From Catenulisporales bacterium (lineage in GTDB: Bacteria > Actinomycetota > Actinomycetes > Streptomycetales > Catenulisporaceae): a DNA stretch of 24,000 nt. The stretch lies in assembly GCA_019510485.1 (NCBI GenBank), contig JAEKKI010000142.1, positions 19,839 to 43,838 on the forward strand. The letters are read 5' to 3'. A program made the translations under genes and the position numbers. The notes under the pieces are model-generated. The model was not told the DNA's origin, did no database searches, and saw nothing but the letters and a program-made list of their open reading frames with translations. This document shows positions 2,321 through 23,989 of the stretch, one piece after another (positions within the stretch are counted from its first letter, which is position 1; each line of letters opens with the position of its first letter).

Positions 2321-2499
2321 AGTGTCATCGACGCTGAATGTCGTGCGAGGAGCGCACGAGGGCTGGGACGTCCGCACGGGCTGACACCCAAGCTACCCCC
2401 GGGCGTCCCGGCCCGCACCGCGCATGGCGGACCGGCGTCCTCGGCCTGGTCCGCAGGTAGGGCGGATAACGAGGGGACGGGCGCTGGTACCCTTGTCGT

Positions 2500-2529
2500 A
2501 TGCGGGCTGTGACGCTGCTTCTTATGTAG
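2500..2529 (+). CDS. candidate 9-codon leader peptide MRAVTLLLM upstream of leuS
   Basis: ATG CGG GCT GTG ACG CTG CTT CTT ATG TAG has three consecutive Leu codons, two of them the rare CTT. No SD precedes it, but TACCCT (2488-2493, TANNNT-type -10) ends 6 nt before the A of the ATG. That fits a leaderless transcript. The stop codon abuts a strong hairpin. Confidence 0.35.
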   Translation: MRAVTLLLM

Positions 2530-2577
2530 CCGCGCTGAAACAGGCCGGAGCGCCGTGAGGCTCCGGATCAGCGCGGC
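2529..2577 (+). promoter_or_regulatory. two-part RNA hairpin in the leuS leader (candidate anti-antiterminator)
   Basis: The outer stem is GCCGCGCUGA (2529-2538) paired with UCAGCGCGGC (2568-2577), 10 perfect bp. The inner stem is CCGGAGC (2545-2551) paired with GCUCCGG (2560-2566), 7 bp, with loop GCCGUGAG. Confidence 0.45.
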
Positions 2578-2580
2578 TCC

Positions 2581-2618
2581 CCTCCATGGCCGGAACGGCC
2601 CCGGGGGCTTTTTCTTTT
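2581..2618 (+). terminator. intrinsic-terminator-like hairpin plus U tract inside the leuS leader
   Basis: CCUCC (2581-2585) pairs with GGGGG (2603-2607), including one G-U. GGCCG (2588-2592) pairs with CGGCC (2596-2600) around a GAA loop. The stem is followed by C TTTTT C TTTT (2608-2618), an unusually T-rich run for this sequence, 54 nt upstream of the leuS ATG. Confidence 0.45.
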
Positions 2619-2671
2619 CCAGCCCAGATCTGCATCTGACCAGACGTACCCGCGAGGACTAGAAGACGACT

Positions 2672-5548
2672 ATGAGCGAGCAGACCGCACAGCCCAAGCC
2701 TGCGAGCGAGGAGCCCAAGTTCCGCTACACGGCCGCCGTCGCCGCCGAGATCGAGCCGAAGTGGCAGGAGTACTGGGCCGCTCACCACACCTTCCAGGTC
2801 CCGAACCACCCGGCCGACATGTCCGAGCCCAAGGCCTACATCCTGGACATGTTCCCCTATCCCTCCGGCGCCGGCCTGCACGTCGGCCACCCGCTGGGCT
2901 ACATCGCCACCGACGTCCTGGGCCGCTACAAGAAGATGACCGGCCACCACGTCCTGCACACCATCGGCATGGACGCCTTCGGCCTGGCCGCCGAGCAGTA
3001 CGCGGTCGAGCACGGCGTGCACCCCCGGGTGAGCACCGAGGCCAACATCGCCCGCTACCGCGAGCAGATCCACCGCATCGGCTTCGGCCACGACACCCGG
3101 CGCGGCGTGTCGACCATCGACGTGTCCTTCTACAAGTGGACGCAGTGGATCTTCCTGCAGATCTTCAACTCCTGGTACGACCGGGACGCCGGCCGGGCCC
3201 GCCCGATCGCGACCCTGATCGAGCGGTTCGCCTCCGGCGAGCGCCGCACCCCGGACGGCCGGGCCTGGGCGTCGCTGTCCGTGCCGGAGCAGGCCGCGGT
3301 CATCGACTCCCACCGCCTGGCCTACATCGCCGAGGCGCCGGTGAACTGGTGTCCGGGGCTGGGCACCGTGCTGTCCAACGAGGAGGTCACCGCCGACGGC
3401 CGCTCCGAGCGCGGCAACTTCCCGGTGTTCAAGCGCAACCTGCGGCAGTGGATGATGCGCATCACCGAGTACAGCGACCGGCTGCTGGCCGATCTGGACC
3501 GGCTGGACTGGCCGGAGCCGATCAAGCTGCAGCAGCGGAACTGGATCGGGCGCTCCGAGGGTGCTCGCGTGCACTTCGGTGTGACGGCGATCGACGGCTC
3601 CGAGAAGACCATCGAGATCTTCACCACCCGGCCCGACACCCTGTTCGGCGCCACCTACATGGTGCTGGCCCCGGAGCACGAGCTGGTGGACTCCTTCGTG
3701 GCCGCGGAGTGGCCGGCCGGCACGAAGGACGTCTGGACCGGCGGGTTCGCCACCCCGGCCGAGGCCGTCGCCGCCTATCGTGCGCAGGCCGCCGCCAAGA
3801 CCGAGGTCGAGCGCCAGACCGAGGGCCGGCAGAAGACCGGCGTGTTCACCGGAACCTTCGCGGTGAACCCGGTCGACGGCGAGGGCGTGCCGGTGTTCAT
3901 CGCCGACTACGTCCTGATGGGCTACGGCACCGGCGCGATCATGGCGGTGCCGGCGCACGACCAGCGCGACTTCGAGTTCGCCCGGGCCTTCGACCTGCCG
4001 ATGCGGATCGTGGTCTCGGCCCCGGCGGACTGGCCGGCGGACATCGCCGACTGGACCGAGGCCTACGACTCCAAGACCGCGCAGATCACCAACTCCGCCA
4101 ACGACGAGGTGTCCCTGGAAGGTCTGCCGGTCCCGGCCGCGATCCGCGCCATCTCCGAGTGGCTGCGGGCCAAGGGCATCGGCGAGGGCACCGTCACCTA
4201 CCGCCTGCGCGACTGGCTGTTCTCGCGGCAGCGCTACTGGGGCGAGCCGTTCCCGATCGTCTACGCGGTCGACGGCCCCGACGCCGGGATCGCGAAGGCC
4301 CTGCCGGAGTCGATGCTGCCGCTGGAGCTGCCGGAGGTCGACGACTTCTCGCCGAAGACCTTCGAGGCCGGCGACGTCACCAGCGCCCCCGAGCCGCCGC
4401 TGTCGCGCGCCGCCGACTGGGTGAACGTGACGCTGGACCTGGGCGACGGCCCGCGCCAGTACCGGCGCGAGACCAACACCATGCCGCAGTGGGCCGGCTC
4501 CTGCTGGTACTACCTGCGCTACCTGTCGCCGGACGACGACAGCCGGTTCGTCGAGGCCGAGGCCGAGAAGTACTGGATGGGGCCGCGGAACCCCGACGAC
4601 ACCGGCGGCGTGGACCTGTACGTCGGCGGCGCGGAGCACGCGGTGCTGCACCTGCTGTACGCGCGGTTCTGGCACAAGGTGCTGTTCGACCTGGGCCACG
4701 TCACCAGCGCCGAGCCGTTCCGCAAGCTGTACAACCAGGGCATGATCCAGGGCGCGTCCTACACCGACGCGCGCGGGGTCTACGTCCCGGCCACCGAGGT
4801 CGAGGAGATCGACGGAAGGTTCCACTACAAGGGCGAGCCGGTCACGCAGCATTTCGGCAAGATCGGCAAGTCGCTGAAGAACGTCATCTCCCCGGACGAC
4901 ATGATCGACGAGTACAGCGCCGACACCCTGCGCATCTACGAGATGTCGATGGGCCCGCTGGACATGTCCAAGCCCTGGGACACCCGCGCCTCGATCGGCT
5001 CGTTCCGCTTCCTGCAGCGGCTGTGGCGCAACGTGGTCGACGAGGAGAACGGCGAGGTCACCGTCACCGACGCCGAGCCCGACGAGGCGACGCTGCGCGT
5101 GCTGAACAAGACCATCGACGGCGCGCGCAACGATATGGAGGCCATGCGCTTCAACACCGCCATCAGCAAGCTGATCGAGCTGAACAACCACCTGACCCGC
5201 CTGCCGTCGGTGCCGCGCTCGGCGGCGGAGACACTGGTGGTGCTGGTCGCTCCGTTCGCCCCGCACATCGCCGAGGAACTGTGGTCCCGGCTGGGGCACC
5301 GCGACACGGTGGCCCACGCGCCCTATCCGGTCGCGGACCCGGCGTACCTGGTCGACGAGACGGTGACGTGCGTGGTGCAGGTGGCCGGCAAGGTCAAGGA
5401 CCGCCTGGAGGTGCCGCCGGGGATCGCCGAGGACGCGCTGCGCGAGCTGGCGCTGGCTTCGGACGGCGTACAGCGGGCGCTGGAGGGGCGCGGGGTGCGG
5501 ACGGTGATCGTGCGGGCGCCGAAGCTGGTGAACGTGGTGCCGGCTTAG
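2672..5548 (+). CDS. leuS: leucine--tRNA ligase (LeuRS)
   Basis: This is a 958-aa ORF. It has the class I HIGH motif (HVGHPLGY), a KMSKS-type motif (KIGKSLKN), the CP1 editing region and the typical LeuRS C-terminal domain. It is collinear with bacterial LeuRS throughout. Confidence 0.98.
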
Positions 5549-9914: not shown

Positions 9915-10613
9915 TCAGGGCTGGAACCGATATCCCATGCCCGGCTCGGTCAACAGATGCTCCGGCCGCGAAGGCTCACGCTCCAACTTCCGCCGCAGCT
10001 TCGTGAAGTGGAACCGCAACAGCGGCGTGTCGTTCTCATACCCGTGCCCCCACACCTCGGCCAGCAACTGCTTCGCCGTGACCAGCCGCCCGGCGTTCTT
10101 CAGCAGCACCTCGACGATGCCCCACTCGGTCGGCGTCAGGTGCACACCAGCCGGCACGGCCAGCGGCGCCTCAGGAGAGCGCGTCACCGTGTGCGCCGCC
10201 ACGTCCACCTCGTAATCGCCGATCCGCTGCACCGCCGCCTTGGGCGCATTCCGGTCCGCATGCCGCCGCGCCACCCGCAGCCGCGCCAGCAACTCCTCCA
10301 TCGAGAACGGCTTCGTCAGGTAGTCGTCCGCCCCCGCGTCCAGCGCCTCGACCTTGTCCGAGGCGTCGGCGCGCCCGGACAGGACCACGATCGGAACCTC
10401 GCTCCAGCCCCGCAGCCCCTTGATCACCTCGGCACCGTCCAGATCCGGCAGCCCCAGATCCAGCACCACCAGGTCCGGCAACGTACGCGCGGCCAACGCC
10501 AGCGCCGAGGTCCCGTCCACGGCCGTGACCACCTCGTACTTGCGCGCCGTGAGGTTGATCCGCAGCGCCCGCAGCAGCTGCGGCTCGTCGTCTACCACCA
10601 GGACCTTGATCAC
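9915..10613 (-). CDS. kdpE: OmpR-family response regulator KdpE
   Basis: The receiver domain is (M)IKVLVVDDEPQ...DLVVLDLGLPDLDG...KPF, followed by a winged-helix output domain (LTPTEWGIVEVLLKNAGRLVT...YRF). The GTG start overlaps the kdpD stop (GTGA). Confidence 0.95.
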   Translation of the reverse strand: MIKVLVVDDEPQLLRALRINLTARKYEVVTAVDGTSALALAARTLPDLVVLDLGLPDLDGAEVIKGLRGWSEVPIVVLSGRADASDKVEALDAGADDYLTKPFSMEELLARLRVARRHADRNAPKAAVQRIGDYEVDVAAHTVTRSPEAPLAVPAGVHLTPTEWGIVEVLLKNAGRLVTAKQLLAEVWGHGYENDTPLLRFHFTKLRRKLEREPSRPEHLLTEPGMGYRFQP

Positions 10614-13216
10614 CGGACGGACTCCTCAGCGCCGGTGGACACGGCGACGTCAGCCCCCGCCACCGGCAGCGAAACCACCATCGTCATCCCCCCGCCCGGC
10701 GTCTCCTCCGGCGCCACCGTACCGCCCATAGCCTCCACCAGCCCCCGCGACAGCGCCAGCCCCAGCCCCACGCCGGTCGTGTTGTCCCGGTCCCCGAGAC
10801 GCTGGAACGGCGTGAATATCCGCTCCCAATCCTCCGGCCGGATCCCCGGACCCCGGTCGACGACCCGCAGCTCCACCCGCCCGGCCAGCTCCGAGGCGGT
10901 GATCAGCACCGGCGCGTCCGGCGAGCCGTGCTTGAGCGCGTTCGCGATCAGGTTCGCCACCGCCCGCTCCAGCAGCACCGGGTCGGCGGCCACCTCCGGC
11001 ACGCCGTCCAGGTCCCGGAACTCCACCCGCGACGGATCCGCGCCCAGGGAGTCCAGCGCCATCGCCGCGACGTCCTCGACCGCGACGTCCTCCATCCGCA
11101 GGTTCAACGCCCCGGCCTGCAACCGGCTCATGTCCAGCAGGTTGTCCACCAGCCGCGACAACCGGTCCAGCGACTCCTCGGCCCCGGCCAGCAGCTCGGC
11201 GCGGTCCTCGGCCGACCACTGCACGGAGGTGTCCCGCAGCGAGGCCACCGACAGCTTCGCCGCCGACAACGGCGTGCGCAGATCATGCGACACCGCCGCC
11301 AACAGCGCCGTGCGCATCTTGTCCGCCGCCGCCAGCGGCACCGCCTCGGCCGCCTGCCGCGCCAGCCGCGAGCGCTCCAGCGCCACCGCCGCCTGCGCCG
11401 CGAACGCCGTCAGCACATGCTGGTCCGACGCCGGCAGCACGCGCCCGGCCAGCACCAGCATCGCGTCCGGCCCCGCGGGCACCACCACGTCGCCCTCGCC
11501 CGGCGTCCGGCACGGCATCGCCCCGGATCCCGACGTCGCCGCCACGATCCGCCACGCCCGAAGGTCGTCGGCCTCGTCCGGCAGCACCGGCGTGTTCGGC
11601 TCCGTCCGCTCCAGCAGCGCCACCGACTCCATCCCGAACGTCTCCCGGAACCGCCCCAGCAACGCCCCGATCGCCTCATCCCCGCGCAGCACCGAGCGCG
11701 CCAGCTCCGAGAGCGTCTCAGCCTCCGCCGACGCCTTCGCCGCCCGCCGCTCCTGGCGCGCGGCGAAGTCCACGACCGAGGCCACGATCAGCGCCACCAC
11801 CACGAACACCACCAGCGCCACGATGTTCTGCGGATCGGCGATGGTCAGCCGGTAGAACGGCGAGATGAAGTAGTAGTTCAGCAGCAGCGAGGCCGTCAGC
11901 GAGGCGAAGAACGCCGACAGCAGACCGCCCAGCCGCGCCACCGCGACCACCCCGGCCAGGAAGATCAGCACCTGGTTCACCAGATGCAGCTGGGGACGGA
12001 AGTTCGCCAACACCAGCGTGAGCACGAGCGGCAGGACCAGCCCGGCCACCGGCCCCCACCAGCGCGGTCCCTTCTCCGGCTGCCGCAGCACCCGGCGCAG
12101 CCCGGTCCAGCGGCTCTGCTCGGCCGCCGAACGCTCATGGGTGACCATGTGCACGTCGATGTCGCCGGACAGCTGGACCACGGTCTCGCCGATGCCGTAG
12201 CCGCCGAGGAACCGCTCCAGCCGGCCCCGCCGCGACACGCCGACCACCAGCTGCGTGGCGCTCTCGGCGCGCGCGAACTGCATCAGCGCCTCGGGGATGT
12301 CGTCGCCGACCACCGAGTGGAAGCTGCCGCCCAGTGACTCCACCAGCTCGCGCTGCTCGGCCAGCCGGGCCGGCGAGGCCCCGGTCAGCCCGTCGGAGCG
12401 GGCCACGTGCACCGCCAGCAGGTCCGAGCCCTTGGCGCCGAGCCGCTGCGCGATGCGTGCCCCGCGCCGAATGAGCGTGGCGCCCTCCGGGCCTCCGGTC
12501 AGCGCCACCACCACGCGCTCGCGGGTCTCCCAGACCTTGTCGATGCCGTGCTGGCCGCGGTAGCGCTGCAGGGCCTCGTCGACCCGGCCGGCCACCCACA
12601 GCAGCGCCAGCTCGCGTAGCGCGCCGAGGTTGCCGGGGCGGAAGTAATTGGACAGCGCCGCGTCGATCTTCTCCGGCTTGTAGATGTTGCCGTGCGCCAT
12701 CCGGCGGCGCAGCGCCTCCGGCGCCATGTCGATCAGCTCGATCTGGTCGGCCGCCCGCACCACCTCATCGGGCACGGTCTCGCGCTGCGGCACACCGGTG
12801 ATCTTGTGGACGACGTCGTTGAGCGATTCCAGATGCTGCACGTTGACCGTGGTTATGACGTCGATCCCGGCATCGAGCAGGTCATCGACGTCCTGCCAGC
12901 GCTTGGCGTTGCGCGAACCGGGGACGTTGGTGTGCGCGAGCTCGTCGACCAGCGCCACGGCCGGACGCCGGTCCAGCACGGCGTCCAGGTCCATCTCCTC
13001 GAACTGCGCGCCCCGGTACTCCATCCTGCGGCGCGGCACGACCTCCAGGCCGTCGACCATCGCCTGGGTGTGCGGCCGGTCGTGGGCCTCGACGAAGCCG
13101 ACCACCACGTCCCCGCCCCGCTCGGCGCGGCGCTGGCCCTCGTCGAGCATGTGGTACGTCTTGCCGACGCCCGGGGCGGCGCCGAGGTAGACGCGCAGTC
13201 GGCCGCGCGCGCTCAT
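10610..13216 (-). CDS. kdpD: osmosensitive K+ channel sensor histidine kinase KdpD
   Basis: The product is 868 aa. The N-terminal KdpD domain has a Walker-like GAAPGVGKTY and is followed by a USP-like region and four TM helices. It also has the H-box AVSHDLRTPLSA and a HATPase_c domain (...DRGPGI...GLGLAL...). Confidence 0.97.
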   Translation of the reverse strand: MSARGRLRVYLGAAPGVGKTYHMLDEGQRRAERGGDVVVGFVEAHDRPHTQAMVDGLEVVPRRRMEYRGAQFEEMDLDAVLDRRPAVALVDELAHTNVPGSRNAKRWQDVDDLLDAGIDVITTVNVQHLESLNDVVHKITGVPQRETVPDEVVRAADQIELIDMAPEALRRRMAHGNIYKPEKIDAALSNYFRPGNLGALRELALLWVAGRVDEALQRYRGQHGIDKVWETRERVVVALTGGPEGATLIRRGARIAQRLGAKGSDLLAVHVARSDGLTGASPARLAEQRELVESLGGSFHSVVGDDIPEALMQFARAESATQLVVGVSRRGRLERFLGGYGIGETVVQLSGDIDVHMVTHERSAAEQSRWTGLRRVLRQPEKGPRWWGPVAGLVLPLVLTLVLANFRPQLHLVNQVLIFLAGVVAVARLGGLLSAFFASLTASLLLNYYFISPFYRLTIADPQNIVALVVFVVVALIVASVVDFAARQERRAAKASAEAETLSELARSVLRGDEAIGALLGRFRETFGMESVALLERTEPNTPVLPDEADDLRAWRIVAATSGSGAMPCRTPGEGDVVVPAGPDAMLVLAGRVLPASDQHVLTAFAAQAAVALERSRLARQAAEAVPLAAADKMRTALLAAVSHDLRTPLSAAKLSVASLRDTSVQWSAEDRAELLAGAEESLDRLSRLVDNLLDMSRLQAGALNLRMEDVAVEDVAAMALDSLGADPSRVEFRDLDGVPEVAADPVLLERAVANLIANALKHGSPDAPVLITASELAGRVELRVVDRGPGIRPEDWERIFTPFQRLGDRDNTTGVGLGLALSRGLVEAMGGTVAPEETPGGGMTMVVSLPVAGADVAVSTGAEESVR

Positions 13217-15277: not shown

Positions 15278-15356
15278 GAATGTCGTCGGCCTCGTCGTGT
15301 CGGTCCTGCTGGTCGGATACCTGATAGCGGCCCTGATCCGTCCGGAGAGATTCTGA
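15267..15356 (+). CDS. kdpF: K+-transporting ATPase subunit F
   Basis: The TTG start gives (M)SAENVVGLVVSVLLVGYLIAALIRPERF (29 aa). This closely resembles the M. tuberculosis/E. coli KdpF pattern (..NIVGLV...L..YL..AL..PE(K/R)F). AAGGGGG lies 9 nt upstream. The TGA overlaps the kdpA ATG (TGATG). Confidence 0.8.
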   Translation: MSAENVVGLVVSVLLVGYLIAALIRPERF

Positions 15357-17017
15357 TGTCGGACACCTGGGCCGGTGCGCTGCAAGTCGCGGCTCTGATA
15401 TTCCTGCTGGCCGTTTCCTATCGGCCGCTGGGCGATTACCTGGCACACATCCTCACCACGAGGAAGCACCTTCGTGCCGAGAAGGCCCTCTACAAAACGA
15501 TCGGCGTGGATCCCGAGGCGGATCAGACGTGGGGCGTGTACCTGCGTTCGGTGTTCGCGATCTCGGCTGTCGGCGTCCTGCTGCTGTACCTGATCCTGCG
15601 CGTCCAGCACCACCTGATGATGGCGCTCGGGATGCCGAAGATGCAGGCGGATCTGGCCTACAACACCGCTGCCTCGTTCGTCACCAACACCAACTGGCAG
15701 AACTACTACGGCGAGAACACCCTGGGCTACCTGGCCCAGATGATCGGCCTGACGGTCCAGAACTTCGTGTCGGCAGCGGTCGGCATCGCGGTGGTCGCCA
15801 CTTTGATCCGCGGCTTCACCCGGAACCGGACCGACCGGCTGGGCAACTTCTGGGTCGACCTCACCCGCGTCCTGATCCGGCTGATGCTGCCGTTCTCCAT
15901 CGTGTTCGCGCTGGTCCTGATCGCCGGCGGCGTCACCCAATCCCTGGGCGACCATATGACCGTCGTGCACACGGTCAACGGCGATCAGAGCCTTTACACC
16001 GCCGGGACCGGTTCCCAGGAGGCCATCAAACTCCTGGGAACCAACGGCGGCGGCGTCTTCGATGCCAACAGCGCGCATCCCTTCGAGAACCCCGACGGCT
16101 TCACGAACCTGATCGAGATCTACCTGCTGCTGGTCATCGGCTTCGCGCTGCCGCGCACGTTCGGCAGGATGGTCGGCTCGCACAAGCAGGGCTACACGAT
16201 CGTCGCGGTGATGGCGGTGATCTGGCTGGGCTCGCTGGCGTTCTCGACCTTCTTCGAGATGCACCACCACGGCCTCGACCTGGCCACGGGGCACGCCGCG
16301 CTGGAGGGCAAGGAGACCCGGTTCGGGATCCCGGCCTCGGCCCTGTTCATGACCGGCACGACGCTGACGTCGACCGGCGCCGTGAACTCGACGCACGACT
16401 CCTACTCGCCGCTCGGCGGCGGGGCCGCGATGGTCGACATCATGCTCGGCGAGATCGCGCCCGGCGGTACCGGATCAGGGCTCTACGGCATGCTCGTCCT
16501 GGCCATCGTCACGGTGTTCATCGCCGGTCTGATGGTCGGCCGGACACCGGAGTATCTGGGCAAGAAGATCCGCCCGGCGGAGATGAAGTACGCCGCGCTC
16601 TACATCCTCACCACGCCCGCCATCGTCCTGATCTTCGCCGGCATCGCGATGGCGCTGCCCGGCGAGACCGCTCGGATGACCAACTCCGGGCCGCACGGTT
16701 TCTCCGAGGTCTTATACGCCTTCACCTCCATGGGCAACAACAACGGATCGGCGTTCGCGGGCCTCGGCGGCGACACCACCTGGTTCAACACCGCCGGCGC
16801 CCTGGCCATGCTGTTCGGGCGCTTCCTGCCGATGGTCTGGGTGCTGGCCCTGGCCGGCTCGCTGGCCCGGCAGCGGCCGGTGCCGGAGTCCTCCGGCACG
16901 CTCAAGACGGCCTCGCCGCTGTTCGCCGGGATGCTGCTCGGCACCGTGCTGCTGGTCGTCGGCCTCACCTACTTCCCGGCCCTGTCGCTGGGCCCGCTCG
17001 CTGAAGGACTCCACTGA
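15356..17017 (+). CDS. kdpA: K+-transporting ATPase subunit A
   Basis: The product is a 553-aa polytopic membrane protein. It begins [30 protein letters not shown] and contains the conserved [19 protein letters not shown] and NNGSAF selectivity-filter-like segments of KdpA. Confidence 0.97.
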
Positions 17018-19043
17018 TGTCTGTCCCTGCCTCTGAGACCTCACATCGCATCGGTGGCGGCTTCTTGGACCCGCGGATGTTGGGCAAGTCGCTGCCGGAG
17101 GCCATGCGCAAACTCGACCCCCGGGCCATGGTCAAGAACCCGGTCATGTTCGTGGTCGAGATCGGCTCGGCCTTGACCACTTGGCAGGCGATCGCGCACC
17201 CGTCGGTGTTCGCGTGGGTGATCACCGTGTGGCTGTGGCTGACGGTCGTCTTCGCCAACCTCGCCGAGGCGGTGGCCGAGGGTCGCGGCAAGGCGCAGGC
17301 CGCGACGTTGCGCAAGGCCAAGACCACCACGGCCGCCCGCAAACTGGCCTCCTGGTCCCCGGGGAACGCGGGCCCTGAGACCGAAGTCCCCGGAACCGAT
17401 CTCCAGCCCGGCGACTTCGTCGTGATCGAGGCCGGGCAGGTCATCCCCGGTGACGGTGACGTCGTCGAGGGCGTGGCCAGCGTCGACGAGTCGGCGATCA
17501 CCGGCGAGTCGGCCCCGGTGATCCGGGAGTCCGGCGGCGATCGCTCGGCGGTCACCGGCGGCACCAGAGCGCTGTCCGACCGGATCGTCGTGAGGATCAC
17601 CGCCAAGCCCGGCGAGACGTTCATCGACCGGATGATCGGTCTGGTCGAGGGCGCCAACCGGCAGAAGACGCCGAACGAGCTGGCGCTGAGCGTACTGCTG
17701 GCCTCGCTGACCATCGTGTTCCTGCTGGCGGTCGTGACGCTGCAGCCGATGGCCACCTGGGCCGGGGCCGCGCAGTCGCTGGTCGTGATGATCGCGCTGC
17801 TGGTGGCGCTGATCCCGACGACGATCGGGGCCCTGCTCAGCGCCATCGGCATCGCCGGGATGGACCGCCTGGTGCAGCGCAACGTGCTGGCGATGTCCGG
17901 CCGCGCGGTCGAGGCCGCCGGCGATATCAACACGCTGCTGCTGGACAAGACCGGGACCATCACGCTGGGCAACCGTCAGGCTTCTGAATTCCTCCCGGTG
18001 CGGGGTGTCGACGCCTCGGCTCTGGCCGATGCCGCACAGCTGTCTTCGCTGGCCGACGAGACGCCGGAGGGCCGCTCGATCGTGGTGCTGGCGAAGTCGG
18101 CGTACGGCTTGCGGGAGCGGCACTCCGGCGAATTGGGCGGTGCGGAGTTCGTGCCGTTCACCGCGCAGACGCGGATGTCCGGCGTGAACCTGGCCGACGG
18201 CCACCAGGTCCGCAAGGGCGCCGGATCGGCGGTCAGGAAATGGGTGCGCGACAGTGGCGGGCACCCCACCGACGAGGTCGGCTCCCTGGTCGACGCCATC
18301 TCCGCGGCCGGCGGCACCCCGCTGGTCGTCGCCGAGCACGTCCCCGGCCGGCCCGCGCGCACGCTCGGCGTCATCCACCTGAAGGACGTCGTCAAGGACG
18401 GCATCCGGGAGCGCTTCGCCGAGCTGCGGGCGATGGGCATCAGGACCGTCATGATCACCGGCGACAACCCGCTGACCGCCGCGGCCATCGCCGCCGAGGC
18501 CGGGGTCGACGACTTCCTGGCCGAGGCCACGCCGGAGGACAAGATGGCGAGGATCTTGGCCGAGCAGGAGGGCGGCAAGCTGGTCGCGATGACCGGCGAC
18601 GGCACCAACGACGCCCCGGCCCTGGCCCAGGCCGACGTCGGCGTGGCCATGAACACCGGCACCTCGGCCGCCAAGGAGGCCGGGAACATGGTGGACTGAT
18701 CACCCGCGGGGCGCTGACCACGTTCTCCATCGCCAACGACGTAGCGAAGTACTTCGCGATCATCCCGGCGATGTTCACGGTGGTCTATCCGGGCCTGCAC
18801 GTGCTGAACGTCATGGGGCTGCACTCGCCGAAGTCGGCGATCACCAGCGCCGTCATCTTCAATGCCTTGATCATCATCGGCCTGATCCCGCTGGCGCTGC
18901 GCGGTGTCCGCTACAAGCCCTCGTCCGCCTCGGCGCTGCTGCGCCGCAACCTGTTGGTTTACGGCCTCGGCGGACTGGCGCTGCCGTTCGTCGGCATCAA
19001 GCTGATCGACCTGATCGTCCAGTTCCTCCCCGGGCTGAAGTAG
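17017..19043 (+). pseudogene. kdpB: kdpB (P-type ATPase catalytic subunit) disrupted by an internal deletion plus frameshift
   Basis: - Frame 1 (17017-18699) encodes 560 aa with [33 protein letters not shown] and ...[10 protein letters not shown], then TGA at 18697.
- The conserved continuation [27 protein letters not shown]...GIKLIDLIV runs in frame 3 from 18696 to the stop at 19041-19043.
- Relative to E. coli and M. tuberculosis KdpB, as I recall them (NMVD-LDSNPTKLIE.V.IGKQL-L(M/I)TRG), about 18 residues are missing at the junction. Confidence 0.85.
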
Positions 19044-20534: not shown

Positions 20535-21290
20535 CTACGGCAGCGAGTCGACGACCTCCGCGATCGACCGCCGCCGCCCGGTATAGAACGGCACCTCCTC
20601 GCGCACGTGCCGCCGGGTCTCCGAGCCGCGCAGGTGCCGCATCAGGTCGACGATCCGATCCAGGTCATCGGCCTCGAAGGCGAGGATCCACTCGTAGTCG
20701 CCGAGCGCGAACGCCGGCACCGTGTTGGCCCGCACGTCCGGGTACTCCCGCGACATCATGCCGTGCTCGGCCAGCAGCCGGCGGCGCTCGGCGTCGGGCA
20801 GCAGGTACCACTCGTAGCTGCGGATGAACGGATACACCGCGACGTAGGCGCGTGAGTGTTCGTCGGCGATGAACGCCGGGATATGGCTCTTGTTGAACTC
20901 CGCCGGGCGGTGCAGCGCCATCTGCGACCACACCGGCTCGGTCAGGCGGCCGAACGCGGTGCGGCGGAAGCGCTGGTAGGCGTCCTGCAGCTGGTCGGAA
21001 TTCTCGGCGTGCAGCCAGAGCATGACGTCGGCGTCGTGCCGGAAGCCGGCCACGTCGTACACGCCGCGCACCACGACGTCGTCCTTGGCCAGGGTCTCGA
21101 ACAGCGCCTCGACCTCGGCGGCCAGCTCCGCGCGCGCGTCCTCGGCGGCCGGCAGCTCGGCCCGCACCTTGAACACCGACCACATCGCGTAGCGGGTGAC
21201 CTCGTTCAGCTCCACGGCCCGCTTGCCGATGCGGACGTTGCTCACCACGCCGGCGGGGCGCTCGGGACGCTCGTTCGTGTTGTCGCTCAT
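20535..21290 (-). CDS. hemQ: coproheme decarboxylase / chlorite-dismutase-family heme synthase HemQ (ChdC)
   Basis: The product begins [10 protein letters not shown] and contains ...[15 protein letters not shown]..., ...[17 protein letters not shown]... and ...[15 protein letters not shown]..., which are typical actinobacterial HemQ blocks. ATG 21290 lies 4 nt after the hemY stop; ATG 21308 is an alternative. Confidence 0.92.
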
Positions 21291-21294
21291 GTCC

Positions 21295-22803
21295 TTATTC
21301 TTCCTCATGGGTGATCTCTCGGGCCGCACGCGAAGCGGAGGCCACACACGCCGCGATCCCGACGCCGTCATACGCCGCCCCGCACACGGCCAAACCCGGC
21401 TGCGAGGCGACGGCCGCGAGGATGCGCCCTACCCGCGCCACGTGTCCGACCGCGTACTGCGGAAGCCCACCGCCCCAGCGCTGCACGTGCCAGTCGACCG
21501 GTTCGCCGAGCGCGTTCGGCCCCAAGGCTTTGCGCAGGTCGGCCAGCGCGAGCGCGGACAGCTCGGCGTCCTCGCGCCGCAAGTCCGCGCTCTCGCGATG
21601 CCGTCCGACCGACGCGCGGATCACGGTCTTGCCGGACTCGGCCAGCCAGGACCATTTGACGCTGGAGAACGTCGAAGCCTTGATGAACCGGCGGTCGGCC
21701 GGCGGCACCAGGAACCCGGAGCCCGCGGGCAGGGCGGTGGCGTCGTCGAACACGAACGTCGCCAGCGCGACCGAGGCGTATTCGATGTCTGCGAGCTCCG
21801 CGGCCGCCGCCGGAGCGACGTCCCGGAGCAGGCGGGCCGCCGGAGCGCCGGGCACGGCGACGACGACCGCGTCGAACTCGTGCGCCTCGGCGGCCGGCAC
21901 CGGTCCGCAGACCAGCCGCCAGCCGTCCGGTGTGCGACTCAGCTCCCTGACCATCGTCGAGGCCAGCACCGTGACCCCGGCCTTCTCGCAGGCCTGCGCC
22001 AGCACCGCCGGGAACCGCCCGACGCCGCCCCGGATGCCGGCGAACACCGGCTTCGGATTCGCCGCGGCGGCCTGCGCGGCCAGGATCTTGGACACCGCCT
22101 CGTCCACCGGCTCGCCGGACTCATAGGCCGGGACCAGCGCCGGGATCGCGGCCCGCAGCGAGATCTCGTCGGCGCTCCCGGCGTAGACGCCGCCGAGCAG
22201 CGGCTCGACCAGCCGGTCCACGACTTCGGGTCCGAACCGGTCGGCGACGTACCGGCCCACCGCGACGTCGTCGGTCTCCGCCTCGGCCCGCAGCCGCGCG
22301 CGCGAGGGCAGCGCCGGACCGGATTCGGCCCGCTTCAGCCCGGCCCGCGACAGCAATCCGGCCAGCACTCGCGGATCGCCCGGAATCCCCATCAGGTGGC
22401 CCTTGGGCATCGGCACCAGCTCGCCACGGCTCCATACCGACGCCGAGGCCGTCGCCGGGTGCACGACGTCCTCGGCCAGGCCCACGGCGCGCACCAGATC
22501 GACGGCCTCGGGCCGCCGGTTCAGGATCGACTCGGCGCCCAGGTCCACCCCGACCCCGCCGACCTCGCCCACCGCCAGCTTGCCGCCGAGCCGCGGGGAA
22601 CCTTCGAACACCGTCACGGCCGCCTCGGGCGCCGACTGCTTGACGAACCACGCCGCCGCCAGCCCCGAGATGCCGCCGCCGATCACCGCGATGGTGCGGG
22701 GGCGACCGCTCGGCGTGTCCGGGGTCGAACCCTGAGACGCCGTCTCGGCCGAGCCGGCCGAGCGAACCGCGGTCGCCGAACCCGCCGAGCCCGCCGCACT
22801 CAT
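21295..22803 (-). CDS. hemY: protoporphyrinogen/coproporphyrinogen III oxidase HemY (CgoX), FAD-dependent
   Basis: It has the dinucleotide-binding motif [14 protein letters not shown] and HemY-family blocks (GGKL..., FSSVKW..., [13 protein letters not shown]). ATG 22803 is preceded by AGGGGG at 5 nt; GTG 22827 is an alternative start. Confidence 0.9.
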
Positions 22804-22846
22804 CGCAGCCCCCTGTGTCGTGCCCACCGCCGCCTGTCTTTCCGCC

Positions 22847-23989
22847 TCAGCGCGCCGACGCCTCGTGCACCAGCTCGACCACCCGCGCCAGCGTGTCCGG
22901 ATCCATCTCCGGCATCACCCCGTGCCCCAGGTTGAAGATGTGGCCCGGCGCCTGCGCACCCTCGCGCAGCACCTCCCGCACCCTGGTCTCGATCGCCGGC
23001 CACGGCGCGAAAATCACCGCCGGGTCCAGGTTGCCCTGCACCGCGTAGCCGGGGCCGATCCGCCGCGACGCCTCGTCCAGCGGCACCCGCCAGTCCACGC
23101 CGACCACGTCCGCGCCCGCCGCCGCCATCAGCGGCAGCAGCTCGCCGGTGCCGACGCCGAAGTGGATGCGCGGCACGCCGAGGTCGGCCACCGCCGCGAG
23201 CACCTTGGCGCTGTGCGGCATCACATAGCGCTGATAATCGCGCGGCGACAGCGCCCCGACCCAGGAGTCGAACAGCTGCACGATACTGGCGCCGGCCTCG
23301 ATCTGCACCCGCAGGAACCCGGCGGTCAGGTCGGCCAGCCGGTCCAGCAGCGCGGCGAACAGCTCCGGCGCGCCGAGCATCATCGCCTTGGTCTTCTCAA
23401 GGTTCTTCGACGGCCCGCCCTCGATGAGGTAGCTGGCGACCGTGAACGGCGCCCCGCCGAAGCCGATCAGCGGCTTCGGGCCCAGCTCGCCGACCAGCTG
23501 CCGGACCGCCTCGGTGACGAACCACAGGTCCGCGTCCGGGTCCAGCGGCCGGATCTGCTCCAGCCCGGCGAAGTCGCGCACCGGGTTGGCGATCACCGGG
23601 CCGACGTCCGGCTTGATCTCCAGGTCCACGCCGATCGCCTTCAGCGGCAGCACGATGTCGCTGAAGAAGACCGCGGCGTCCACGCCGTAGCGGCGCACCG
23701 GCTGCAACGTGATCTCGGTCACCAGGTCCGGGCGCATGCACGATTCGAGCATCGGGATCCCGGCGCGCACCTTGCGGTACTCCGGCAGCGCGCGACCGGC
23801 CTGCCGCATGAACCACACCGGTGTGCGGGAGACCGGCTCCCGGCGCGCAGCGCGCAGCAAATCGCTGTCGTAAGCGGCGGATCGCCCTTCGACCGGCGGC
23901 CTCTCCTCGCGAGGTCCAGGCACTTGCTGCTCGACCTTCTCAATAGCCGACAGGTTCGGCGCCGCCGCGCGATTCGGGCTCTCGGTCAC
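22847..23989 (-). CDS. hemE: uroporphyrinogen decarboxylase
   Basis: The HemE/UroD signature is ...[24 protein letters not shown]...FFSDIVLPL...FGGAPFT...IFNLGHGV.... The tracked start is GTG 23989, but the frame stays open to the window edge, so the true start is uncertain. Confidence 0.93.

Follow-up and report, generated by a model that had tools for sequence, protein, structure and literature searches.

The window analysed here is a 24,000-nucleotide (nt) stretch of a Catenulisporales genome (contig JAEKKI010000142.1), and the element in question is the leader that precedes its leuS gene, which codes for leucine-tRNA ligase (LeuS, also LeuRS). The upstream gene, modA, is divergent and lies on the minus strand; positions 2378-2671 form the divergent intergenic region. 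An exact search with the encoded LeuS gave no recorded entry. Besides its closest match in Catenulispora (Table 1), this LeuS is 71-72% identical to the proteins of Actinocrinis and 67-69% identical to those of Streptomyces in protein comparisons; therefore, the window copy of the leader comes from outside Streptomyces, in a Catenulispora-like host.

An original prediction, made from the letters of this DNA, had read the region as a leaderless, ribosome-mediated attenuator in which a run of Leu codons controls leuS, and all the parts that it named were located where it had placed them. The upstream open reading frame (uORF) for MRAVTLLLM, with its three Leu codons, and the two-part hairpin, here called P1, stand at the coordinates that it gave. 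The Leu run ends 5 nt ahead of the first P1 pair, in the window as in the family described below. The proposed rarity of CTT was borne out by codon counts, as this codon accounts for 0/66 Leu codons of leuS and 21/684 (about 3%) in the window's open reading frames (ORFs) with high GC content at third codon positions. As a separate observation, all 66 Leu codons of leuS are CTG (no CTC, CTT, TTG, CTA, or TTA), which is extreme even for this genome, and the gene's own leader has CTT CTT. The terminator-like GC hairpin before leuS was also found as described. In the minimum free energy (MFE) structure it consists of 2576-2581/2603-2608 and 2588-2592/2596-2600, with -17.1 kcal/mol on folding of 2576-2609; UUUUUCUUUU comes directly after its end at 2608, and the T-run CUUUUUCUUUU occupies 2608-2618. 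Because modA is on the minus strand, there is no plus-strand gene 5' of this structure that would need termination, as the prediction had pointed out.

Table 1. Features of the leuS leader region in the window, and leader peptides of four relatives.
Feature	Position or peptide	Strand	Basis or remark
leuS (leucine-tRNA ligase, 958 aa), putative regulated gene	2672-5548	+	TIGR00396 (leuS_bact equivalog), 889 bits; 89% identity to Catenulispora sp. EB89 LeuS
-10 hexamer TACCCT (TANNNT), putative leader promoter	2488-2493	+	6 nt ahead of ATG 2500; spacing common to the family
Leaderless uORF, MRAVTLLLM-stop (ATG 2500 to TAG 2529)	2500-2529	+	shortened form of the 12-codon family leader, TCG to TAG at codon 10
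Putative regulatory Leu codons CTG CTT CTT	2515-2523	+	family codon statistics; P1 starts at G2529
Hairpin P1: outer stem 2529-2538/2568-2577 (10 bp), inner stem 2545-2551/2560-2566 (7 bp)	2529-2577	+	predicted -32.9 kcal/mol; outer stem covaries in the family
CCG CGC TGA, former last two uORF codons and stop, now untranslated, kept as P1 5' arm	2530-2538	+	in frame with ATG 2500; arm variants matched by compensating 3'-arm changes
Linker between P1 and terminator, 1 nt	2578	+	family linker 1-3 nt
Terminator hairpin; CCCC (2579-2582) and GGGG(G)C (2603-2608) family-like, loop replaced by inserted hairpin 2588-2592/2596-2600	2579-2608	+	predicted fold
U-tract TTTTTCTTTT, then conserved CC	2609-2620	+	T-run near-universal in the family; covariance model alignment reaches 2620
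L081, Catenulispora sp. EB89 leader peptide	MRAVTLLLMSPR, stop		upstream of leuS
L082, metagenome leader peptide	MRAGQLLLMPPR, stop		upstream of leuS
L083, Actinocrinis leader peptide	MYAVRLLLTGPR, stop		upstream of leuS
L084, Streptomyces sp. Go-475 leader peptide	MRAVRLLLSGPR, stop		upstream of leuS

A leader of this type is already known from Streptomyces. A classical attenuator ahead of leuS was predicted by Seliverstov et al. (2005; PMC1262725, Fig. 4). Later, Droste et al. (2021; PMC8079986, Table 4) reported leuL2 upstream of leuS in S. lividans TK24, with the peptide MRAVRLLLSEPR, a leaderless start by differential RNA sequencing (dRNA-seq), and then a hairpin and a uridine stretch. 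The statement of the original prediction that no Leu-leader attenuator had been described for actinobacterial leuS was thus wrong. Searchable papers other than these two gave no additional account of a leuS leader.

The window element shares with Streptomyces leuL2 the gene, the position, and the leaderless start, as well as a near-identical MRAV-LLL peptide core; MRAVTLLLM(SPR) in the window resembles both the S. lividans peptide and that of Streptomyces sp. Go-475. The hairpin 5' arm CCGCGCUGA is found in both, followed by a hairpin and a U-tract as the putative terminator, and the covariance model introduced below assigns them to the same RNA family. In contrast, the window leader belongs to a Catenulispora-like host, its peptide has 9 residues owing to the TCG to TAG change, its linker is 1 nt, and its terminator loop holds an insertion of about 10 nt with an extra stem. 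The window element is consequently a further case of the known leuS leader type, in variant form. Judging from sequence comparison, 2488-2620 is probably the Catenulispora-lineage orthologue of the Streptomyces leuL2 leader and an attenuator that, through the ribosome, makes transcription of leuS depend on how well tRNA-Leu is charged.

To place the element in a family, loci were gathered in two ways. A pattern-free scan anchored on LeuS, with one genome per species, gave at least 80 other actinobacterial loci, with no Streptomyces among the matches listed; together with the four relatives of Table 1 they made up 84 loci, used as the outgroup and distribution sample. The second search was run on metagenomes with a pattern (Leu run, N6, CCGNNNTGA, a gap of 20-50 nt, CCCCTC, loop, GAGGGG) and returned at least 120 loci (L085-L204). 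Family counts below refer to the 125 distinct leaders among the matches listed, and the third bases of the Leu codons, the linker, the T-run, the P1 3' arm, and the upstream region were free in the pattern.

A covariance model (R1) was built from an alignment of 66 metagenomic leuS leaders, independent of the window. This model matched window positions 2500-2620 with 47.1 bits (E 3.3e-11) over its full length, model positions 1-94 of 94. The score is the lowest among the true matches, the others ranging from 50 to 82 bits. The features of the window leader are more than chance, because a model from independent leaders aligns with them end to end; this is more decisive than the comparison with dinucleotide shuffles, in which the fold of 2500-2625 had z = -2.47 and 3/200 shuffles were as stable. 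In the rest of the 24 kb, the model gave a single chance-level match (E 0.23), a weak partial one of 10.5 bits at 22292-22344 on the minus strand, inside the overlapping ORFs 21196-22935 (+) and 21295-22827 (-), which we judged to be a chance GC-rich hairpin.

The scan of 2200-2900 against Rfam, with E up to 10, gave four chance-level matches only, with no T-box and no Leu_leader or Leu-Phe leader family among them, and the scan of the whole window at gathering thresholds gave no T-box or Leu leader match. A T-box riboswitch and the known Rfam Leu leaders are thereby ruled out for 2200-2900, and the actinomycete leuS leader is without a matching model in Rfam 15.

A simple search for a uORF with three Leu codons recovered the element in 13/80 of the LeuS-anchored loci listed, and the covariance model in 18/84 loci (14/80 anchored loci and the four relatives of Table 1), always just upstream of leuS and on the same strand. 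Likewise, leuS is the next gene in about 105 of the approximately 108 listed metagenomic loci with enough downstream DNA. Within the LeuS-anchored set, the element is present in Micromonospora, Actinopolyspora, Prauserella, Pseudonocardia, and metagenome-assembled genomes of Streptosporangiaceae, Propionibacteriaceae, and Dermatophilaceae; among the matches listed, none of the loci from Mycobacterium/Mycolicibacterium, Corynebacterium, Nocardia, Acidimicrobiia, or Bifidobacterium in the 84-locus set has it. A subgroup of metagenomic loci (L090, L093, L099, L103, L113, L117, L134, and others) has the same leader before a LeuS that is only about 35% identical to the window protein in its N-terminal part, and so the leader precedes two LeuS protein lineages; protein searches place the second one in Nocardioidaceae, Actinopolymorphaceae, and relatives. 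The leuS leader is a widespread, well-conserved RNA family of Actinomycetes, found in many families and not confined to Streptomyces.

Conservation begins at the promoter. A TANNNT hexamer ends 6 nt (83 leaders) or 7 nt (26 leaders) ahead of an in-frame ATG or GTG, a placement found in 113/114 leaders although the region lies outside the search pattern, and within the 70 nt upstream of the Leu run this motif occurs almost exclusively at the 6-7-nt site. Together with the dRNA-seq result for S. lividans leuL2, this spacing supports the proposal of the original prediction that TACCCT is the -10 element of a leaderless transcript. Among the Leu codons, whose third bases were free, the first is CUG in 93/125 leaders, the second is CUC in 56 or CUU in 55, and the third is CUU in 96 or CUC in 28. 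The spacing from the third Leu codon to P1 is identical in 19/19 LeuS-anchored copies. This includes two leaders with only two Leu codons, L001 (1275-1371) and L070 (1277-1380), from a Micromonospora and an Actinopolyspora (MAGVFLLTQPC-stop and V..ARLLTKPR-stop); since both retain the usual distance between the last Leu (CUU) and P1, the upstream Leu codon is the one that was lost.

Hairpin P1 and the terminator covary. The base ahead of CCG, free in the pattern, is G in 125/125 leaders, and the P1 3' arm, likewise free, compensates every change of the 5' arm, pairing CCGUGC with GCACGG, CCGCGU with ACGCGG, and CCGCAC with GUGCGG. Three pairs of the outer stem alternate between C-G (53) and U-A (13), G-C (50) and A-U (11), and C-G (55) and U-A (7), and the interior of P1 varies in length and sequence across the family. 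The linker from P1 to the terminator measures 1-3 nt in 125/125 leaders and 2 nt in 103, for a pattern gap of 20-50 nt. Its last base is paired to the base immediately past GAGGGG (U-A in 49, C-G in 44), and the seventh pair of the family terminator covaries as well (G-C 29, A-U 28). Over the 66-sequence alignment, 92.7% of the P1 and terminator cells are paired; doubly changed cells number 68 compared with 15.9 +/- 8.5 in shuffles (0/500 reach it), and the covariation score is 0.186 compared with at most 0.084 for slid partners. When mutual information was computed for every pair of columns, only the P1 pairs and pair seven of the terminator were conspicuous. The same design thus recurs in 125 distinct listed leaders with a covarying hairpin and terminator, which argues for the core of the original prediction, a leaderless Leu-codon attenuator of leuS.

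Beyond GAGGGG, a T-run free in the pattern is near-universal, and the region after the stem (2609-2624 in the window) has the consensus UUUUUU-C-R-U-K-Y-C-C, with U at position 9 in 120/125 leaders and CC at positions 12-13. This motif may be a pause or termination-point signal. It often reads as ATG or GTG 9 nt after the GAGG, which resembles a Shine-Dalgarno (SD) sequence; the ORFs so opened are not conserved. A second ORF, starting at the conserved RUG beyond the U-tract and using GAGGGG for its SD, was considered and rejected: the start occurs in only about 60% of members, and the peptides range from 1 to more than 130 residues without conservation.

Against this family background, the 9-residue peptide of the window is a derived truncation. 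The relatives read AUG UCG CCG CGC UGA, the window AUG UAG CCG CGC UGA, and the former stop TGA is still in frame at 2536-2538. That TAG 2527-2529 is an early stop had escaped the original prediction; the family peptide has 12 codons and ends in P-R/C/H-stop, with the UGA inside the P1 5' arm, whereas the window peptide stops at codon 10. An early UAG at the same codon is also present in four leaders of independent lineages that are otherwise intact, L102 and L129 (...LLLT-stop-PR-stop), L135 (...LLLR-stop-PR-stop), and L145 (...LLLM-stop-PR-stop), and UAG is the sole stop codon that preserves the invariant G at the foot of P1. The early stop looks like a tolerated variant. Since early UAG stops recur and keep this G, the peptide tail appears dispensable and CCGNNNUGA appears to be kept as RNA and not as coding sequence.

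The terminator of the window is also modified. The loop CAUGCGC of the closest relatives L081, L128, and L137, whose terminator reads CCCCTC-CATGCGC-GAGGGG, is replaced by GGCCGGAACGGCCCC; this brings in an insertion of about 10 nt and forms an extra stem. GAGGGG is CGGGGG in the window. The CCCC/GGGG core and U-tract are present, and the predicted hairpin is stronger than those of the family (-17.1 vs -10 to -14 kcal/mol). A direct repeat, GGCCGGA, has one copy at 2543-2549, on the 5' side of the inner stem of P1, and the other at 2588-2594, in the window-specific insertion; the insertion may have arisen from a local duplication.

The premature stop and the remodelled terminator, along with the lack of any experimental function for a leuS leader in searchable papers, could suggest that the window copy is not a sensor, and instead yields a constitutively terminated short transcript or is a decaying relic, with leuS transcribed from a promoter of its own in 2619-2671. 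We regard this as very improbable. The -10 element, Leu run, P1, U-tract, and post-terminator CC are all intact in the window, and the four other early stops occur in otherwise intact leaders. The promoter scan of 2200-2800 revealed no sigma-70-like site, although such scans are a weak method for actinobacteria. Several relatives offer no room for a promoter: in L096, L109, L142, L184, and L187, leuS starts about 34 nt after GAGGGG, or about 25 nt past the U-tract, and therefore requires read-through. Because leuS is essential and must be expressed, the terminator has to be leaky or regulated, at least in those organisms. Furthermore, the placement of Leu codons specifically before leuS across many families argues for sensing.

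Several relays from the position of the ribosome to the terminator were considered. The original prediction had proposed a switch of three helices, in which GGCCGGAG (2543-2550) pairs with CUCC-AU-GGCC (2582-2591) as an antiterminator, excluding both the inner stem of P1 and the terminator's 5' half. The 8 Watson-Crick pairs are real (duplex -10.9 kcal/mol); however, constrained folding placed the enforced pairing 13.4 kcal/mol above the MFE in the free leader and 2.4-15.6 kcal/mol worse under every ribosome mask tried (30, 34, and 41 nt). Even when it is enforced, a GC hairpin beside the U-tract still forms. For the switch, the inner P1 stem would have to give up its 5' strand; this strand pairs with its local partner immediately, and a ribosome at the Leu codons or at the TAG cannot reach it. 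The complementarity itself follows from the GGCCGGA insertion, and its GGCC partner has no counterpart in L081, L128, and L137, in spite of a LeuS identity of 88-89%, or in the rest of the family. While the relatives confirm the Leu-run uORF, P1, and the terminator, this third helix is specific to the window and never favoured, and we consider the switch extremely improbable.

For the family in general, the mode of all well-studied leader-peptide attenuators, and the class assigned to the leuS leader in 2005 (PMC1262725), would be a relay of the trp type. Here, a stalled ribosome would block P1, and the freed 3' arm (GCGCGG) would pair with the terminator loop (YUGYGY). The resulting hairpin would hold CCCCUC in its loop and serve as the antiterminator until RNA polymerase is past the U-tract. 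The terminator loop is unusually conserved for such a loop, and with region 1 masked and the terminator 3' arm not yet made, RNAfold predicts a weak hairpin between the end of the P1 3' arm (GCGCGG or GCGG) and the loop (CUGCGY) in most members, at -3 to -9 kcal/mol. This is the only recurrent antiterminator candidate. The two segments can pair in 81.0% of alignment cells, but shuffled partners do so in 81.3% (379/500 shuffles as high), and thus no covariation is seen; the class with GCACGG keeps CUGCGU, leaving an A-C mismatch, and the pairing is lost where an extra stem replaces the loop (the window, L010, L013, and L070). The mutual-information scan of all alignment columns disclosed no further helix.

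Two other pairings were examined and set aside. A longer P1, with GGG...CCC pairing that reaches the 5' arm of the terminator, is by eye limited to the Gly-Pro subclass and not general. The Leu-codon tract CUYCUU could in principle pair with GAGGGG, but it is hidden under the ribosome in the stalled state.

Further points stand against the trp-type relay. In equilibrium folds with the 5' end masked as by a ribosome at the first Leu codon, the third, or the stop, the terminator stays in the MFE structure in essentially all members, so that thermodynamics alone gives no switch. In addition, the Leu codons lie upstream of P1 and not inside region 1 (transcript nt 16-24, with P1 from nt 30); with a ribosome at the third Leu codon, at least 8 of the 10 pairs of P1 are expected to remain intact, and a ribosome at the stop codon frees the same arm, which offers no distinction between the starved and the fed state. 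On balance, the trp-type relay is the main alternative to the relay preferred below, though on the unlikely side.

We tentatively prefer, with less than even confidence, a relay that is steric or kinetic and does not use an RNA antiterminator. Whatever the relay, transcription appears to start at the A of the ATG at 2500, giving a leaderless transcript, because the -10 spacing is conserved and the dRNA-seq published for S. lividans agrees. The transcript carries the short uORF with its Leu run ending in the rare CUU. The covarying P1 follows 5 nt on, its 5' arm being formed by the last part of the uORF; 1-3 nt past P1 comes the covarying intrinsic terminator with its U-tract, and then leuS. 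With Leu-tRNA plentiful, the ribosome would pass the Leu codons and unwind P1 at the last codons and the stop; the terminator would then form, and most transcripts would end at about 2610-2618. With Leu-tRNA scarce, the ribosome would wait at CUU and more polymerases would read into leuS.

The point at which a ribosome unwinds RNA lies at about +11 from its P site. In the 12-codon form, with the third Leu codon in the A site, the P-site codon would start at nt 19 and the unwinding point would be at nt 29. Because P1 begins at nt 30, it would stay folded in the starved state with the ribosome docked at its foot, and only the reading of codons 9-12 and of the stop would open it. P1 ends 1-3 nt from the terminator stem, whose lowest pair covaries. 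If still folded, P1 would therefore stand in the way of this stem as it completes inside the exit channel of the polymerase, whether or not a ribosome is docked, while a ribosome melting P1 would license termination. This assignment, read-through with P1 intact and termination upon melting, appears to be the only consistent one because the feedback must be negative. The constant spacing from the third Leu codon to P1, the 1-3-nt linker, the lack of a covarying antiterminator, and the persistence of the terminator as MFE under all masks fit this steric relay.

Taken by itself, the geometry derived from spacing, folds, and ribosome dimensions, in which P1 survives a stall but is melted by ongoing translation, would also fit the inverse logic: translation through P1 would free its 3' arm for read-through, stalling would keep P1 and the terminator and lower leuS, and the leader would report general translation capacity. 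Such an arrangement is very improbable. It would amount to positive feedback, with less Leu-tRNA leading to less LeuRS, opposite to every known synthetase control, T-boxes and pheST included; it gives no reason for Leu-specific rare codons, and the antiterminator that it requires does not covary.

Under the preferred steric relay, timing may be provided by pausing. Conserved steps from U to G occur at two places, one in the loop of the terminator, 11 nt past P1, and one at U9-G10 after the stem, preceded by GG, and these fit the geometries of hairpin-dependent and elemental pauses. Pauses at these steps would give time for the decision and synchronise the ribosome with RNA polymerase. The complete proposal, an attenuator without an RNA antiterminator in which P1 places the CUU-waiting ribosome 1-3 nt from the terminator stem, P1 melting licenses termination, and the U-G pauses synchronise both machines, is doubtful as a whole. 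The terminator arms CCCCUC/GAGGGG are invariant across several orders (the L001-L084 copies and the window), while P1 covaries freely, and they resemble an anti-SD/SD pair. A more remote variant would have these arms mimic anti-SD and SD, the free anti-SD of a ribosome on leaderless mRNA competing for GAGGGG.

Several points weigh against our interpretation. We know of no direct precedent for a steric relay, and it depends on the dimensions of ribosome and RNA polymerase given in the general literature. The Leu-to-P1 spacing and the CCCCTC/GAGGGG arms were fixed by the metagenome pattern, and the conservation of both was judged from the 19 LeuS-anchored copies only. The window copy, with its early stop and altered terminator, could behave differently from the consensus. 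Searchable papers gave no experiment on leuS leader function: the leader is a prediction in PMC1262725, and in PMC8079986 a transcription start site with a description. Moreover, codon substitutions in the Streptomyces ilvB and leuA leaders were reportedly without effect (PMC1262725), and leader peptides in this phylum are therefore not always classical.

Comparison with known systems helps to define the element. Like the E. coli pheST (pheM), trp, leu, and his leaders, it appears to combine a leader peptide rich in cognate codons with an intrinsic terminator, controlling a synthetase or biosynthetic operon by ribosome stalling. Those leaders have an SD-led uORF, regulatory codons inside region 1, and a defined 2:3 antiterminator, whereas the leuS leader is leaderless, its Leu codons end 5 nt before the hairpin, its stop lies inside the hairpin 5' arm, no antiterminator covaries, and the Rfam Leu_leader model does not match. 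With T-box leaders (Firmicutes; ileS in Actinobacteria) it would share the outcome that poor charging of the cognate tRNA raises the synthetase through a terminator in the 5' leader; in contrast, the T-box senses uncharged tRNA directly by RNA-tRNA pairing, without translation, and no T-box model matches here. Other leaderless actinobacterial uORFs, such as the mycobacterial Cys-rich ones, the leuA LEU element, and the ilvB leaders, are also short ORFs with runs of cognate codons 5' of the regulated gene, but most of them lack an obvious terminator or act on translation, while in the leuS leader a terminator is clear from its covariation and U-tract. In E. coli pyrBI, the leader ORF extends across the terminator sequence, which is covered directly by the ribosome translating it. 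Under the preferred steric relay, the leuS leader would resemble pyrBI in that a ribosome near RNA polymerase decides on termination and not an RNA antiterminator; unlike in pyrBI, the ribosome would be brought beside the terminator by the P1 fold.

As a control of an actinobacterial synthetase, the leuS leader is not new, having been in the literature since 2005. What the present analysis adds is its breadth across Actinomycetes, covariation support for the hairpin and terminator, and conservation support for the leaderless promoter. A textbook antiterminator was not found in the family, and the spacing from codons to hairpin argues against the textbook relay. Antibiotics of the benzoxaborole class target LeuRS, and for this reason a leader that raises leuS when charging falls could alter how these bacteria respond to such drugs.

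Elsewhere in the window, a kdpB-like ORF at 17017-18699 (+) encodes E1-E2 ATPase and hydrolase domains in 560 aa, which looks short for KdpB. Its neighbours are kdpA (15356-17017) and kdpD (10610-13216, minus strand). It overlaps a plus-strand ORF in another frame at 18240-19043, which may reflect a frameshift or a sequencing error.

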